Shown: positions 33,001 to 39,000 of the stretch, piece by piece
How positions within the stretch are numbered: the stretch's first letter is position 1
How the letters are laid out: the number at the start of each line of letters is the position of its first letter
DNA from: Longimicrobiales bacterium
GTDB lineage: Bacteria; Gemmatimonadota; Gemmatimonadetes; Longimicrobiales; Gaopeijiaceae
Direction of reading: 5' to 3'
Assembly: GCA_963664435.2 (NCBI GenBank)
Contig: CAXXKM010000002.1
Location: forward strand, 192,001-256,000
DNA length: 64,000 nt
Program-made: the position numbers

Positions 33001-36000
33001 TCCGCGCCCCGCTCGCGCAGCAGGTCGCGCACATAGGTGAAGAACTCCATGTGCCCGCCCTGGTACGAGCTGATCGCGATGGCGTGCGCGTCCTCCTGGA
33101 TCGCACACTCGACGATCTCGAGGGCGGAGCGGTTGTGCCCCAGGTGGATGACTTCCGCGCCGGAGTCCTGGAGGATCCGGCGCATCACGTTGATGGCGGC
33201 GTCGTGTCCGTCGAAGAGCGACGCCGCCGTGACTACCCGGATGGGCTGAGCGGTACGCGGCGGGGCGGCAGCAAGGCGATCCATCCAGCCTCCTTCACGG
33301 CACGATCACCGAGAGCGCCGAGGGGACGACATCCACGCGCACCTTGCCCGTGCGCGACTGATGCACGTCGCCGTCGACCTCGTAACGTACGCGCTCGCCG
33401 AACTGCACGGCAAAAGCGCGATGCTGGCGCAGAGAAACCTCCTTCGCGCCCACATGCCTGCCCTTCTCGGCGAGGCTGAACAGCCGGGCCCGTCCCAGCG
33501 GCGAGGAATCGGCGATCGCGCACGCGTCCAGCCGCCCATCCTCGAGGTCCGCGTCCGGGGCGATCGGGAATCCGCCCCCGAAGATGCGTCCGTTCGATAT
33601 GGTGAGGATGAGGTGCCGTCCCTCGGTCCTCCAGCCACCGCCGTCCGACAGGCGCAGCCGCGAACTCCGGTACAGGAACAACTGCTGCAGGGCGGTGACC
33701 TTGTACAGGACCGCCCCCCGCAGGAAGCGGGCTCTCAGGCTGGCGTCGATGACGGCGATGTCGAAGCCGAAACCCACCAGGTTCAGGAAGTGGCGCGGGG
33801 TATCGCGCCAGGCTGTGCCGGATGCCACCTCCGGATAGGGTGCGGGACGCCACCCCGACACCACCCGCCCCACGTCGATACGGCGGGTCCGGCCCGCCGC
33901 CAGCGCCGCCACCGCCTTCTCCGGGTCGCCGTAGCTGAGCCCGAGGCTCCTGGCGAAGTCGTTCCCGGTTCCCGCAGCCAGCAGGCCCAGCGACACATCC
34001 GTGCGCCCGGATGCCACCACGCGGTCGGCCACCTGGCTGCAGGTGCCGTCGCCCCCCACGGCCACGATCAGCTCCGCCCCGTCGGCGATTGCCTTGCCCG
34101 CGAGTTCGGCTTCCTCGCCCGGCGCCGTGGTCGACGCCCACTCGTAGGCATCGAGGTGCCTGTCGAGGAGCCCACGGTAGAGGGGGAGGCGGCGCGCGCC
34201 CCGTCCGCGGCCGGAAGCCGGGTTGAAGACGACGAAGGTGCGCACCCCGTCGCTCAGATGTGCTCCAGTTCCTCGAATACCTGGACGCCGTTCCTCATCC
34301 ACTGCTCGCGAAACGGATAAGTGGCCACCTGGTCCAGGGTCAGCTGGGAGGTCATCGGGTGCTCATGCAGCTTCAGCGACCCCAGCTCCTCCTCGTGCTC
34401 GCTGTGCGGCCCCTGCATGTGGATGTCCACCTTGAAGCGGTCGTCGCCGTTGACCATGAACGACTGGTAGAGGTGATCGACCTTCGCCGACCGGTGGTCC
34501 GCGATCTCGAAATCCAGGACGGGCTGGTCTCCGTCGCGCACCTCCACCCGCATGCGTCCGTCCGAGGGCTGGAGGCTGATGTCGAGATCCTTCATGTAGT
34601 GCGGAAGATGCCAGCGCTCGATGGCGTGCTCGCGCGACGCCTCCGTGCTCGTCCCGACGAGGTAGGGGTAGAATGCGGATTTCGCCATACCCTGGCCCGG
34701 ACTCACCAGCGGCGGGACGATGACCGAAAGCACGATCTCCTGATAGGGTCCGACCATGCTGTCGGTGAAGTCGAAGGCGGTGACCGCAAGGATGCTTGCC
34801 TCGTGCTGCACTTCGAGCGGCTGCAGGTGCGGGGGAAGGATGCGGCGGGCATCCGAGGTGGCGATTTCGAAGAAGGCGCTGACCGCCTCCGAATAGTGAT
34901 ACCGGGTCAGGGGCATTTTCCGTATTTCTTGAGAATGGAGACGATGATCTCGGCGCCCTCCTTCAACTCCGCCCGGGTGTGGGATGCCGAGATGGACATG
35001 CGGAAACGCGACTTGTGCTTGCCCACCGCCGGGAAGCGGACGGGGTTGATGTAGACGCCCGCGTGCAGCAGATCCTCCGCGATCTGGAAGATGCCGGCAT
35101 CGTCGCGGATCATGATGGAGATCACCTGCGAAGTGGAGTCCCCGACGTCCACGCCCGCCTCGCGCATGAGTGCGTGCATGTAGCGGGCGTTGTCCCACAG
35201 CCTCTCGCGGAGCTCCGGTTCGGACCGGGCGATCTCGAGCGCCTTCAGGAGCCCGGCCGTCACCGGGGGCGGAAGCGCGCAGGAGAAGACGCGGGAACGC
35301 GCGAAGCCGCGCAGATAGTAGATGAGCTCGGCGGGTCCGGCGACGAACCCTCCCAACCCGCCCAGGCTCTTGGAGAAGGTTCCCAGGTGGATGTCGACCT
35401 CGTCGTCGAGACCGAAGTGCTCGGCGACGCCGCGGCCGTTGGGCCCGTAGACGAAGGTGGAGTGCGCCTCGTCGATGAGGAGGCGCGCCCCGTGCTTGCG
35501 GCAAACGTCGACGATCGCGGGCAGATCGGCCACGTCCCCGTCCATCGAGTACACACCCTCGACGACCACCAGCTTCTTGCCGCTGAACCCGTTCAGCTTG
35601 CGGTCCAGATCCGCCGCGTTGTTGTGCTTGAAGAAGCGGGATGTCGCCTTGGACAGGATCATCCCGTCGACGACGCTCGCGTGGGCCAGCTTGTCCGCCA
35701 CCACCAGATCGCCCGGGCGCATCAGGCCGGCGATGAGCCCGACGTTGGCGCTGTAGCCGGTCGGGAAGATGAGTGCGGCTTCCTTGCCCTTGAAGGATGC
35801 GACCTCGTTGGCGAGGCGCTTGTGCAGGTCCGTGGTGCCGGAGAGCACGGGCGATCCGGAGGCGCCTGCCCCGTACTTGCGCACGGCGTCGCAGATGGCC
35901 TCGATCACCTCCGGGCGGTAGGAAAGCCCCAGATAGTTGTAGGACGCGAAGTTGATCAGGCCCTCGAGGTTTTCCCGGGTCTTGGGATCCTCGATCTCGA

Positions 36001-39000
36001 CTCGGGTCGCGGGCGCGGAACCCAGCGGCAACCCGTAAAGGTAGTAGCCCGCCCCGAACTCGGCGTCCTTCCACCACTCCCCGAAGGGCTCCAGAATCCC
36101 GAAGGGATCGGTGCCTGCTCCGAAATAGAAGTTGGTGTAATCGTAGTCGCTCAAGCCCCGCAGCGGCGGCCGGTCATCGTCCTGGGGGGTCGAGCCGTGG
36201 GAGGCGCCGCGCGCTCCGTCCGAATCGACGGTAGCGAGATCCGTTGCTCCGCCGGCCGCCGCCTGCCGCGTTGACGCCGAAGCGGATTTCCTGCTAGCGT
36301 TTCGAATGTCACTCATATGTTTGCCCGATGTTCTTCCGATCGGACCACACCCGCCATTCAGGACACGTCATTGGACCTCCGTGGCGCCTTGACTCTCACC
36401 GCGCTCGGCGCGGCGCTACTGGCCTGCGACCTTGTTCAGCGCCTCCTGATCGCACCCATGGCGCGATTGCTGCCGGGGAACCGTGACGCTCTGCTCACGG
36501 AGTGGCAGCGCTTCACGGCCCATGTGGTCATCTTCTTCCTTCGCCATATGGGCGGAGTGCGTTTCGGCGAGTTGCCGGACATCCCGTCAACCCGCGGCGT
36601 GCTGGTGCTCATGAACCACCAGTCGCTGCTCGACATCCCGCTCGTCGTGGCGTCGATGCGCGGCGTCTACCCCCGCATCGTCACGCGCAGGCGATACGCC
36701 CGCGGCGTTCCCCTAATATCCCACATGACAAGGCTGTACCGATACCCCTTGGTCGATGCGAGAGCAACCCTGCGCGGCGAGCTGAAGCGGCTTCGCCGGG
36801 AAGCGGCCGCTTCCACGCATCCCCTCGTCATCTACCCGGAGGGAACCCGGAGCAGGACGGGTCGCATCGGCCCCTTCAAGACGCTGGGGCTGGCGACCAT
36901 TCTGGCGGCGCGCCGCTGGAGCGTGTACGTCGTGGTGGCGGACGGATTGTGGAAGTGGACGCGACTCAGGGACTTCTTCGGAAACCTATCGTTGATGCGC
37001 ACCCGCGTCGAGTGCCTGGGACCCTTCGAATCGCCGGCGGCGGATGCCGATCTGGATGGGTTCATCATGGAGATGCGGGGCGTCATGATCGGAATGCTCG
37101 ACGAAATGCGGGGCGTCCCCACGGCGGCGGAGCCCGTATGACGAGCTCGGACGCGCCCATCGAGCACCTGGTTTCCGGGCTGCGGGAGACCGGCGGCGAC
37201 GGGCTGCTGGCGGTGCTGGCGTACGGCTCGCGGCTCGTGTCGGCAAGCCCGGACCGGCACAGCGCCTGGGACCTGGTCGTCGTGGTCGAAGACTACCGTG
37301 CGTTCTATCGCGCACTCCACGAAGACGGACACACGGCGCGCAGTGCGACGTTGCTCGCGACCGTGAGCCGCGTGCTGGCTCCGACCGTCATCGCCTTCTG
37401 GCCGGCTCCGCCGGACGGACCGCTGGCCAAGTGCCTCGTCCTCTCGCGCGCCGACTTCCAGCGGGAACTGGGGCCGCGCCGCCTCGACCACTTCTGCCTG
37501 GGCCGGATGGCGCACCACATCTCGGTCGTGCATGCCCGCGACCCGGACGCGGCCGCGTGGGTCGAGGGGCTGGTGGCCCGCGCACGGCAGATGGTGCTCG
37601 ACTGGACGCTCCCGTTTCTGGGGGGTTCGTTCTCCGTGGACGATTTCTGCCGGCGCATGCTCGAGATCTCGTACGCCGGAGAGATCCGGCCGGAACGCGG
37701 AGGCCGGGCAAGCGCCGTGTACGAGGCCCAGCGGGAGACGCTGCGCGGCATCTACACTCCCATCCTGGAGGCCCAGGTGGCGTCGGGGATGCTCGAGCGG
37801 ACGAACGGCAAGTACCGCGCGGCTCATCCCGCGTCGACCGTGGCCCAGCTCAGGCTGAACGCCTACTTCGGCATCAGCAAGGCACGCGCCACCACCCGCT
37901 GGGTCAAGCACATGCTCACGTTCGACAGCTGGTTCCCCTACATCGTGCGCAAGGTCGAACGGCGCACCGGGATGACGATCGAGATCACGCCTCTGGAGCG
38001 GCGCTTCCCCTTCCCGCTCCTGCTCCCCAAGGCGTTGCGGGTGCTGCGGGCACGCGGCCGGGAGCGAAACGGAAGCACAACGACGACGCGGACCGCCGCC
38101 GACAGGACGCACGGACGCCGTACGGCCGGGCCACGCGGCCGGAACCACCCCGGGGGCAAGGTCCCTTGAGACCCGAGCTGACGGTGCTGGTCGCGGTGGC
38201 GGGGTTCGCGCTCGCCACCATGCCGATCTTCGCGCTGAGTGCCGCCAACCGTGCGGTGGATGCGCTTGAGTCGACCACCCGGGGCAAGTTCGTTCTCGGT
38301 TCCTTTGCGCGCCGCTGGTTCTACTGGTTCGTGCGGCCTGTGGAGAAGGCCTCGCTCGCTCTTGGGCTTGCGCCGCTCTTCTACAACCTGCTCGGGGTTG
38401 CGTTCGGCGGGGTCGCCGGGTGGTTGTTCGCGTCCGGCCGATATGCCATGGGCGGCTGGTCGCTCCTGCTGAGCGGCGTCGCCGATGCCCTGGACGGGCG
38501 CATCGCGCGGGCGCGTGGACTGGCTTCGCCCCGTGGGGCGTTCCTGGACTCGACCCTCGACCGTTTCGCCGAGGTGGCCGCGTTCGTGGGGCTCGCGGTG
38601 GCGTTTCGCGGCTCCGGGGCGGCGCTCGCCGTGGTGGCGGCGGCGCTGGGTGGCTCGCTGCTTGTGAGCTACACGCGCGCGCGCGGCGAGAGCCAGGGCG
38701 TACTGTGCACGGCGGGCGTCATGCAGCGCGCCGAACGGCTCCTGCTGATCGGCTTCGGGGCGATCCTGGACGGCACCGGTTCCGCGCTGCTCGGGCGCGA
38801 CGCGGGCACGGTCCTGCTGGCCGTGCTCACGGTGACCGCGGTGGGCACCATGGCGACCGCCGTCTTCCGCACGGTGTGGATCGCGCGAAGACTGACGTAA
38901 CGTCAGGGTTTGGGGCGCGGGGGACGCTGCGGTCCAAACAGATGTTCCGGCAATAGTCGCCCCGGCCGAGTCGACCCTGCTCTACGCGCCGCCCCGCCGC

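Follow-up and report, generated by a model that had tools for sequence, protein, structure and literature searches.

Among described bacterial systems, the phosphosphingolipid locus of Caulobacter crescentus comprises spt (CC_1162), cpgC (CC_1161), cpgB (CC_1160) and cpgA (CC_1159) (PMC9393093). Deletion of cpgC leaves ceramide-phosphate in place and abolishes CPG (PMC9393093), and in vitro CpgB phosphorylates both ceramide and diacylglycerol (DAG) (PMC10331486). CpgC homologs were already noted in 2024 to contain a Tam41 domain (S1 Text of PMC11324152), and the 2025 CpgD paper has CpgC converting ceramide-1-phosphate by a 'yet unidentified mechanism'. Bacterial sphingolipid producers are predicted by the presence of spt, bCerS and cerR (a criterion quoted in PMC10331486). 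Here we examine a six-gene cassette in a 64,000-nucleotide stretch of a Longimicrobiales (Gemmatimonadota) genome, hereafter the window. The first-pass annotation had proposed for it a new kinase, CDP-lipid and inositol-transfer route to sphingolipids, adding that a search had given no relevant paper on Tam41 with serine palmitoyltransferase (SPT) in bacteria. The literature does make that link, through CpgC, and 'new route' overstates the case: an SPT, a DAGK-family kinase, a Tam41-domain protein and a CDP-alcohol transferase are the four enzyme classes joined in Caulobacter spt-cpgC-cpgB-cpgA, and the core of the cassette is therefore not new. It departs from Caulobacter in a phosphatidylinositol-phosphate synthase (PIPS)-type transferase with an intact inositol-phosphate pocket, a PlsC-like acyltransferase, an acetoacetate-decarboxylase (ADC)-fold protein and a separate SPT clade. 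The proposed route itself stands as the best-supported reading: we put the chances about even that the product of the cassette is an inositol-phosphorylated sphingoid lipid, reached through a kinase, then CDP-activation, then inositol-phosphate transfer.

All six genes lie at 33295..38900 of the window, in the two divergent arms first described (Table 1). Within the arms, neighbouring genes overlap by 4-10 nt (SPT/ADC 10 nt, acyltransferase/Tam41 4 nt, Tam41/PIPS 4 nt). The acyltransferase start was placed from homolog lengths of ~256 aa.

Table 1. Genes of the cassette, with positions counted along the window
Gene product	Position	Strand	Remarks
DAGK/YegS-family lipid kinase	33295..34302	-	longest ORF 335 aa; conserved part begins ~34245
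Acetoacetate-decarboxylase-fold protein	34254..34916	-	220 aa; start overlaps SPT stop
SPT-like alpha-oxoamine synthase, separate clade	34907..36316	-	469 aa
PlsC-like acyltransferase	36371..37141	+	longest ORF from 36317; likely start TTG 36371
Tam41-fold cytidylyltransferase, homolog of CpgC-position protein of alphaproteobacterial sphingolipid loci	37138..38169	+	343 aa
PIP-synthase/archaetidylinositol-phosphate-synthase-type CDP-alcohol phosphotransferase	38166..38900	+	244 aa

As annotated, the best matches of the oxoamine synthase are SPTs, the closest in the PDB being that of S. multivorum (E 1e-85 vs 4e-74 for AONS/KBL). In a tree of 22 rows it forms its own clade on the SPT side, apart from the four KBL-like rows and the one BioF row (support 100/99). 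Its N-terminus is conserved in a congener, the best match of the N-terminal 103 residues is a mycobacterial AONS, and the protein reaches no NCBIfam cut-off, including those of all SPT models (bioF 367 bits, SPT-CFB 362 bits); the last two points speak against the sphingolipid reading, as does the loop change described below. A BioF role is unlikely, since a search for bioB in the 96% complete genome gave a best score of 26.6 against a cut-off of 225. The enzyme family is SPT-like; serine and a long-chain acyl donor are its presumed substrates.

The gene directly after it, in 75/75 loci with room, encodes a protein whose annotated ADC fold, a double barrel, is confirmed by its model (pLDDT 93; 3bh2 matched with Z 21.7, rmsd 2.6, 199 aligned), with a PF06314 score of 21.9 bits, below cut-off. 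Acetoacetate decarboxylase has a conserved Schiff-base lysine. In 16 sequences of the ADC-fold family no invariant or near-invariant column holds a Lys, so ADC-type Schiff-base chemistry is unlikely. A polar set conserved in 98-100 of 100 of these proteins (H38, E60, R95, E177, R203, E204) looks like an active site. Structure prediction also gives weak support to binding between the SPT-like and ADC-fold proteins: the predicted complex scored 0.52 (best of 3 controls 0.00), with runs agreeing in >=44% of contacts and a partner pLDDT of >=88. This mark is reached by 116/157 solved pairs and 2/215 mismatched pairs, but scores of <=0.60 account for only 18 of these solved pairs and yet for both mismatched ones.

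This pairing could also point to a non-standard backbone. The synthase would then take a different amino acid or acyl donor, and its aminoketone product would be reshaped by the ADC-fold protein (by aldol chemistry, dehydration or similar) into an amino-lipid not described before, with phosphorylation, acylation, CDP-activation and inositol capping to follow. We consider this unlikely. The synthase is indeed a separate clade with an altered substrate loop (Pro and Ser in place of Arg82 and Asn85 of S. multivorum SPT), but it keeps the PLP fold-type I oxoamine synthase features (GTFSKS motif and the equivalents of His138, Gly80 and Ser81), and the Tyr at its Asn52 position is also found in S. 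wittichii SPT. Such a backbone is favoured by the inseparable ADC-fold gene with its active-site-like residues, by the lack of an ADC-fold counterpart at the examined SPT loci of Roseomonas and of the canonical Gemmatimonadota type, by the aldolase-dehydratases among ADC-fold structures and by the frequent failure to find bCerS and CerR; the lack of a conserved lysine argues against it, as do three genomes described below, in which the cassette synthase is as good a partner as any for a bCerS-cerR operon without spt.

The kinase (PF00781 98.9 bits, PF19279 82.9 bits, TIGR00147 above cut-off) carries the motifs GGDGT and GTGNDF. A Parabacteroides DAGK adjoining an spt-like gene reaches 135 bits against its profile, which may reflect only general YegS/DgkB likeness; at 7-29 bits, the kinase is not CpgB-like. 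The annotated Tam41 fold of the cytidylyltransferase, a two-domain nucleotidyltransferase fold, is well founded: Foldseek matches 7ecd (E 6e-10, TM 0.58/0.72), and the structural alignment has Z 22.4 and rmsd 3.0 over 243 aligned residues. PF09139 scores 20.3 against a cut-off of 24 bits, several homologs passing, and G30, S31, D45, K98, E182 and R184 are invariant (77/77). The protein is homologous to the CpgC-position protein of Roseomonas (29% identity, E 8e-23), of which it is the only match in this genome, and four CpgC-position proteins reach 68-127 bits against its profile.

The best PDB matches of the final enzyme are PIP synthases (E 2e-24); against curated models it falls below every cut-off (NF040950 125/180, NF045883 97/170 and another 90/350 bits). 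Both the aspartate motif of CDP-alcohol phosphotransferases and the inositol-phosphate pocket are present. The pocket of the M. tuberculosis PIP synthase is formed by R94, S132, Y133, R152, R155 and R195 (PMC6506517), which align with R133, S168, Y169, R188, R191 and R235 of the window protein, the match to R195 via a two-residue extension; these residues are conserved in 70-73 of 73 sequences (R191 in 17/17). Inositol supply, cited in the first-pass annotation as support, carries little weight: inositol-3-phosphate synthase (MIPS) is present (C3:1350559), but so it is in 280/301 genomes of the phylum.

We repeated the locus survey with the SPT-like gene as anchor, independently of the earlier ADC-fold anchor. 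Among 80 loci, all in metagenome-assembled genomes (titled Gemmatimonadota, Vicinamibacteria, Eisenbacteria, Krumholzibacteria and Latescibacteria), the partners were the ADC-fold gene (75), kinase (67), Tam41 (59), acyltransferase (57) and PIPS (54), and the complete set occurred in 27/35 loci with >=5 kb of flank on both sides. The reported joint retention across phyla was thus recovered, as was the occurrence in 17/18 genus genomes (for the Tam41 gene, the sole miss being a 67% complete genome). The single operon reported for Vicinamibacteria exists in three loci (L143, L144, L150) but has five genes, without the acyltransferase; other Vicinamibacterales (L106, L108, L109) have the divergent six-gene arrangement. 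That these lipid genes came to lie together by chance or hitch-hiking, with no common product, is very improbable: the distribution is patchy (35-37/301 genomes of the phylum sample) and single genes are lost, but gene order, overlaps and fusions are retained across >=4 named phylum-level groups at 35-60% identity.

The two halves of the cassette also co-occur across genomes. The Tam41 and SPT clades are both present in 33 of 301 genomes, with singletons in 4 and 2, and their match extends within families, in counts of kin that are not independent (f1: both 24, single 1, neither 23; f5: both 9, single 5, neither 57). The linkage of all six genes, this co-occurrence and the Caulobacter cpgC precedent with its Roseomonas homolog support the sphingolipid reading. 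A somewhat unlikely alternative is that two linked modules are chemically separate: acyltransferase, Tam41 and PIPS would make phosphatidylinositol-phosphate from glycerolipids, the kinase recycling DAG, and the SPT-ADC base would be used apart or would take up inositol-phosphate from PI at a later stage, as happens in Bacteroides. PlsC, Tam41 and PIPS do form the textbook series LPA, PA, CDP-DAG, PIP; the Tam41 proteins of solved structure are CDP-DAG synthases; and of the three PF01066 genes of the genome, the one in the cassette alone was identified as a PIPS-type transferase. The SPT-ADC pair is relocated to a second locus in 6/6 fetched cases, Tam41 is lacking at 13/57 SPT loci with upstream room, and four genomes hold Tam41-PIPS without the SPT clade. 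G271 and G227 retain kinase, Tam41 and PIPS, so that this module can stand alone, which speaks against the sphingolipid reading, as does the activity of CpgB on DAG. Against separate modules, the genome already has a separate CdsA, a PlsC and two other CDP-alcohol transferases, which makes the cassette set surplus to housekeeping and would leave just a PIPS to be needed; the halves are co-resident even when split (33/39 genomes); no Aur1-like transferase was found among the recurrent neighbours to carry inositol from PI to ceramide; and the homologous Caulobacter protein acts after ceramide-phosphate. Two worries raised with the annotation are lessened: that of glycerolipid service by the kept inositol-phosphate pocket, though a glycerolipid module keeps some probability, and that of SPT missing from some loci by its presence elsewhere in 5/6 such genomes.

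The ceramide synthase homolog offered as support does exist (C2:272945) but adds little: it is an orphan in this genome; such bCerS-like genes occur in 12/35 cassette genomes and were not found in 23/35, and no CerR was found in this genome. Most Gemmatimonadota have a canonical spt-bCerS-cerR operon, often plus a PAP2/Aur1-like gene. Canonical SPT is present in 163/301 phylum genomes and 0/35 cassette genomes (neither type in 103/301), an exclusion confounded by family (within f5 p = 0.59); 3/29 further cassette genomes have both. Four cassette genomes carry a bCerS-cerR-PAP2 operon with no spt found within the fetched 15 kb and no canonical SPT found, and in three of these a KBL-like enzyme is the only other oxoamine synthase seen. 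The absence of canonical SPT from the 35 genomes and these spt-less operons again favour the sphingolipid reading.

The acyltransferase (PF01553 49.9 bits) has PlsC/AGPAT features, with an HX4D motif (NHQSxxD, invariant) and an FPEGxR block, and is fused to a Tam41-like domain in P0125, P0144, P0145, P0148 and the partial P0121. A bCerS gene was found in 2/25 genomes with the acyltransferase in the cassette against 5/6 without it; two of these five have the acyltransferase clade elsewhere, leaving one lineage of three genomes.

In the sphingolipid reading, the cassette would run glycerophospholipid chemistry on a long-chain base. The SPT-like enzyme, possibly partnered by the ADC-fold protein, would join an acyl thioester and serine to a 3-keto long-chain base, which would be reduced by an enzyme encoded elsewhere than in the cassette. 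In many loci a zinc alcohol dehydrogenase comes after the kinase and is the candidate for this step; it does not adjoin the cassette in the window, and a homolog occurs in 47/47 family genomes, cassette or not. The kinase would then phosphorylate C1. Within this reading it is roughly a toss-up whether dihydroceramide-1-phosphate arises when the PlsC-like enzyme N-acylates sphinganine-1-phosphate at its C2 amine, which corresponds to the sn-2 hydroxyl of lyso-phosphatidic acid; the fusions and the bCerS counts suggest so, while the bCerS-like genes in 12/35 cassette genomes speak against it. Where bCerS and CerR exist, they could supply ceramide instead. We know of no N-acylation of a sphingoid base by a PlsC-family enzyme, from an outline view of the literature. 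The Tam41-fold enzyme would convert the lipid-1-phosphate to a CDP-lipid (CDP-ceramide), the PIPS-type enzyme would attach inositol phosphate, and a further phosphatase would yield inositol-phosphoceramide. The full ceramide-synthase-independent version, in which phosphorylation of sphinganine comes first, a PlsC-family enzyme N-acylates sphinganine-1-phosphate, the Tam41-fold enzyme makes CDP-ceramide, the PIPS-type enzyme adds inositol phosphate, the ADC-fold protein partners SPT and the zinc alcohol dehydrogenase replaces CerR, is a tentative and rather doubtful proposal. If true, it would be a third way to form the ceramide amide bond, would make CDP-ceramide a metabolite and would explain the Caulobacter CpgC step; if the glycerolipid alternative is true, the cassette is a second PI route in uncultured bacteria, of less interest. 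Most cassette genomes lack bCerS and cerR, and would therefore be overlooked by the spt/bCerS/cerR criterion. With a kinase or acyltransferase on one side and a CDP-alcohol transferase on the other, a Tam41-fold enzyme is expected to make CDP-ceramide, a name not found in the literature searched, and the cassette offers a clean gene set for testing the CpgC step.

Compared with known systems, the cassette is most readily set beside the Caulobacter Cpg locus, where SPT, DAGK-family kinase, Tam41-domain protein and PF01066 transferase are likewise adjacent (PMC9393093, PMC11324152 S1 Text), the likeness of the Tam41-fold protein being judged via the matching Roseomonas locus rather than the Caulobacter sequence. 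The kinase and transferase are, however, not orthologs of CpgB and CpgA (the transferase bears only a weak likeness to CpgA-position proteins, E 8e-5 across 74 aa), the Tam41 proteins of the cassette and Cpg types form separate clades, PlsC-like and ADC-fold genes are added, and bCerS, CerR, ACP, CpgD and LptFG2 lie outside the cassette; in Caulobacter, moreover, CpgA is dispensable for the first head group. Tam41/Mmp37 CDP-DAG synthase (7ECD, 6IG2/6IG4) shares the whole-domain fold (Z 22.4 and 16.9), but identity is 12-16%, the Pfam score is below cut-off and the neighbouring genes suggest a sphingoid substrate. Porphyromonas gingivalis dhSphK1, likened by description, sets a precedent as a bacterial kinase that takes free sphinganine, though dhS1P is described there as a side branch, not a biosynthetic intermediate (PMC9045371). 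The canonical spt-bCerS-cerR(-PAP2) operon of the same phylum shares the SPT-family start and a probable inositol-sphingolipid end, but its SPT belongs to a different clade (40-46% identity). Bacteroides thetaiotaomicron BT_1522-1526 shares a PIP-synthase-type enzyme, MIPS supply and a likely end product, inositol-phospho-dihydroceramide (PMC9246714). There, PI-DAG is made first and the head group is moved by an Aur1-like enzyme, a gene that the window cassette lacks; and in contrast to the CDP-inositol alternative proposed in the same work (PMC9246714), it is the lipid, not inositol, that would be CDP-activated in the window cassette.

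The six-gene cassette is real, conserved and patchily distributed. Its six reading frames lie where the first-pass annotation had placed them, they share the GC content of the genome, and conservation of the flanks (a methylmalonyl-CoA mutase/MeaB fusion and a BNR protein) stops at the genus level. Outside the cassette, the MeaB/methylmalonyl-CoA mutase fusion lies downstream of the kinase at 29757-33284 (-), and an antitoxin-type HTH gene, presumably HigA-like, is found at 28982-29613 (-) with a small ORF upstream.

Window coordinates of the cassette genes
Gene	Position	Strand	Remark
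SPT-like	34907-36316	-	a congener shares the N-terminus, which backs start 36316
ADC-fold	34254-34916	-	
Kinase	33295 to about 34245	-	
Acyltransferase	about 36371 to 37141	+	start inferred from homolog lengths
Tam41-fold	37138-38169	+	
PIPS-like	38166-38900	+	

Within the genus, the Tam41 gene is present in 17 of 18 genomes; none of the 12 genomes from the rest of the order has it. Across a phylum sample of 301 genomes, 37 contain the Tam41 clade, leaving aside 6 more matches that were weak or divergent, and 35 the SPT (serine palmitoyltransferase) clade; 33 genomes carry both, 4 Tam41 alone and 2 SPT alone. Up to three genomes flagged as unpublished (G177, G019, G084, G198) enter the tallies over 301 genomes for the Tam41 clade, bacterial ceramide synthase (bCerS), inositol-3-P synthase (MIPS) and canonical SPT, and no conclusion depends on them. 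Of 18 fetched Tam41-clade loci, 12 have all six genes. The other 6 do lack SPT, as the first reading had cautioned, but in 5 of the 6 genomes concerned the SPT clade lies at another place, and an SPT at such a second locus had its own ADC-fold gene alongside in 6/6 fetched.

A scan of named genomes with an SPT alignment, a query that biases the named loci towards SPT-bearing cassettes, gave at least 588 relatives, of which the best 80 were kept; among these 80, many of whose loci end at contig ends, ADC was found in 75, kinase in 67, Tam41 in 59, acyltransferase in 57 and PIPS (phosphatidylinositol-phosphate synthase) in 54, and all six genes in 27 of the 35 with 5 kb on both sides. In all 75 loci with room, the ADC-fold gene begins less than 250 bp from where SPT ends. 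By record titles, most of them checked, cassette loci belong to Gemmatimonadota, Vicinamibacteria and other Acidobacteriota, Eisenbacteria, Krumholzibacteria and Latescibacteria, all as MAGs. Of 80 kinase loci with room, 37 (among loci L057-L061, L078-L121, L161 and L162) have a zinc alcohol dehydrogenase, a candidate 3-ketosphinganine reductase, as the next gene after the kinase, though the window locus does not; its homolog in the window genome was discarded as a cassette marker, being present in 47/47 family genomes. At loci L201 and L225 a related dehydrogenase follows a bCerS-like gene.

The closest solved relative of the SPT-like oxoamine synthase is S. multivorum SPT (E 1e-85, against 4e-74 for AONS/KBL). 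It retains the GTFSKS motif and the equivalents of His138, Gly80 and Ser81, residues named in PMC10196870, with Arg82 replaced by Pro and Asn85 by Ser; its N-terminal segment best matches mycobacterial AONS, and it reaches no NCBIfam cut-off. In an IQ-TREE phylogeny of 22 rows it groups with the SPTs against BioF and KBL (100/99), yet as a separate clade. A BioF role was rejected as unlikely, since the genome has no bioB and the tree places the enzyme with the SPTs, and a KBL role was rejected because the genome's one other oxoamine synthase, at C1:1337017, is of KBL type. Two further genomes (G335, G332; loci L217, L220) have another GTFSK-type oxoamine synthase, sister to the cassette clade, adjoining a kinase-like gene. 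Oxoamine synthase genes also occur on many small gut plasmids of Bacteroides and Phocaeicola (42-95 kb; H28, H59-H62, H65, H66), with about 41% identity to the window enzyme.

The 220-aa neighbour has, by its structural model, a firmly assigned ADC fold (3bh2: Z 21.7, rmsd 2.6, 199 aligned), which fold search alone revealed, a PDB sequence search with its alignment giving no match; no lysine is conserved in the family. We favour a role as partner of the oxoamine synthase, to which the complex prediction lends weak support: it scored 0.52 against 0.00 for the best control, with contact agreement of at least 44% and partner pLDDT of at least 88, in a range (up to 0.60) that in calibration held only 18 of the 157 solved complexes, together with both of the mismatched pairs (215 in all) that passed.

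The predicted Tam41 fold is firm as well: 243 residues align with 7ecd at Z 22.4 and rmsd 3.0, and the next unrelated fold scores Z 9.3. Distant homologs of this protein led to plasmid records. In Roseomonas mucosa the locus runs CDP-alcohol transferase, kinase, Tam41-fold homolog, then spt and acp, surrounded by bCerS, LptF/G, HIT and metallophosphoesterase genes. Over 284 residues this homolog and the window protein share 29% identity (E 8e-23); it has no other match in the window genome, and its gene order is that of Caulobacter CC_1152-CC_1166 (PMC11324152). The likeness to the Caulobacter Cpg (ceramide-phosphoglycerate) locus is drawn through Roseomonas sequence and Caulobacter gene order. 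Homologs of CC_1161 (CpgC) contain a Tam41 domain (PMC11324152, S1 Text), a cpgC mutant retains ceramide-phosphate and loses CPG (PMC9393093), and the mechanism of CpgC is called unidentified in PMC12275187. SPT, kinase, Tam41 and CDP-alcohol transferase have therefore already been paired in print, so that the "new route" claim is overstated for this core, and the literature does link Tam41 and SPT in bacteria, where the first-pass search had given no relevant paper. The link is easily overlooked because PF09139 is blind to CpgC-type proteins (0/4 detected, and no signal in the Caulobacter control). Our literature searches found no paper matching the cassette and none proposing CDP-ceramide, an idea that may stand in preprint supplements or subscription papers.

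Several other Tam41-like proteins came to light. Domain fusions (protein rows P0127, P0133, P0254, P0270, P0173) join the domain to cytochrome P450, endonuclease/exonuclease/phosphatase, MobA-like NTP transferase (like CC_1153) or CDP-alcohol transferase partners, and P0185-P0269 form a third, diverse group apart from the window and CpgC clades. Diaphorobacter and Pseudomonas plasmids (L066, L067), one of them conjugative IncP, carry Cpg-like head-group clusters with LptF/G. Loci L062 and L063 (genomes G212, G179) hold second, more divergent Tam41-like genes, that of G179 adjoining a PIPS-type gene.

The nearest relatives of the PIPS-like transferase are PIP and AIP synthases, and the pocket residues assigned to inositol phosphate in PMC6506517 are kept in 70-73 of 73. 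Four full-length acyltransferase-Tam41 domain fusions show the pattern expected for consecutive steps. They fit equally well a glycerolipid pathway in which acyltransferase, Tam41 and PIPS make phosphatidylinositol-phosphate and the SPT-ADC pair acts separately. With CdsA, one PlsC and two additional CDP-alcohol transferases also encoded in the genome, the cassette is distinct from the housekeeping set. Stand-alone copies of the acyltransferase clade, with no other cassette genes nearby, occur in G335 and G331 (L229-L233), four of them in one genome. Bacterial sphinganine kinase is known (PMC9045371); the window kinase matches a Parabacteroides spt-adjacent kinase at 135 bits against 7-29 bits for CpgB-position kinases, which may be general family likeness.

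The first-pass annotation had also cited bCerS and MIPS in support. MIPS, present in 280 of the 301 genomes, is uninformative, and bCerS occurs in 184/301 genomes against only 12/35 cassette genomes (21 genomes picked as negative stayed so by profile). The window genome's bCerS, nearest to operon copies of family f7 (73%), was rejected as a cassette partner: it is isolated, no ceramide reductase (CerR) was found in the genome, in the two congeners inspected it is likewise an orphan with neither spt nor cerR, and the search did not find it in four congeners whose genomes are complete or nearly so. We read it as a relic or late arrival.

Elsewhere, a canonical spt-bCerS-cerR operon is carried by most of the Gemmatimonadota sampled (L178-L187; G066, G149, G085, G288, G030, G137, G026, G228, G079); all nine non-genus bCerS regions fetched hold it, with a PAP2/Aur1-like gene in 5. 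From this frequent PAP2/Aur1-like gene and the abundance of canonical SPT (163/301), bCerS and MIPS, inositol sphingolipids may be common in Gemmatimonadota, a subject on which our search found no paper. Canonical SPT occurs in 0/35 cassette genomes; family membership confounds this exclusion (p = 0.59 within f5). Strict exclusion was rejected: bCerS is present in some cassette genomes, canonical SPT joins the cassette in 3/29 further ones, and G237 has another SPT adjoining bCerS.

Our forecast was that bCerS should accompany acyltransferase-less cassettes. A set of 34 further genomes showed bCerS in 2/25 with the acyltransferase in the cassette, 5/6 without it there and 2/3 unassigned. Strict complementarity is weakened, as two of those five have the acyltransferase clade elsewhere; the other three, without it, form a single lineage. 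Four of these genomes have bCerS-cerR-PAP2 with no spt alongside and yielded no canonical SPT; in three of the four the other oxoamine synthase is KBL-like. MAG gaps could explain this pattern, but it is the strongest indirect indication that a sphingoid base is what the cassette enzyme makes.

By structural reasoning, sphinganine-1-phosphate resembles lyso-PA with an amine at sn-2, and an inositol-phosphosphingolipid formed by PA-like chemistry would be the simplest single product; families, folds, motifs, linkage and profiles are observed here, and every substrate is inferred. In its working the cassette would resemble the Caulobacter Cpg system, though with a head group like that of Bacteroides (PMC9246714); it is a member of neither.
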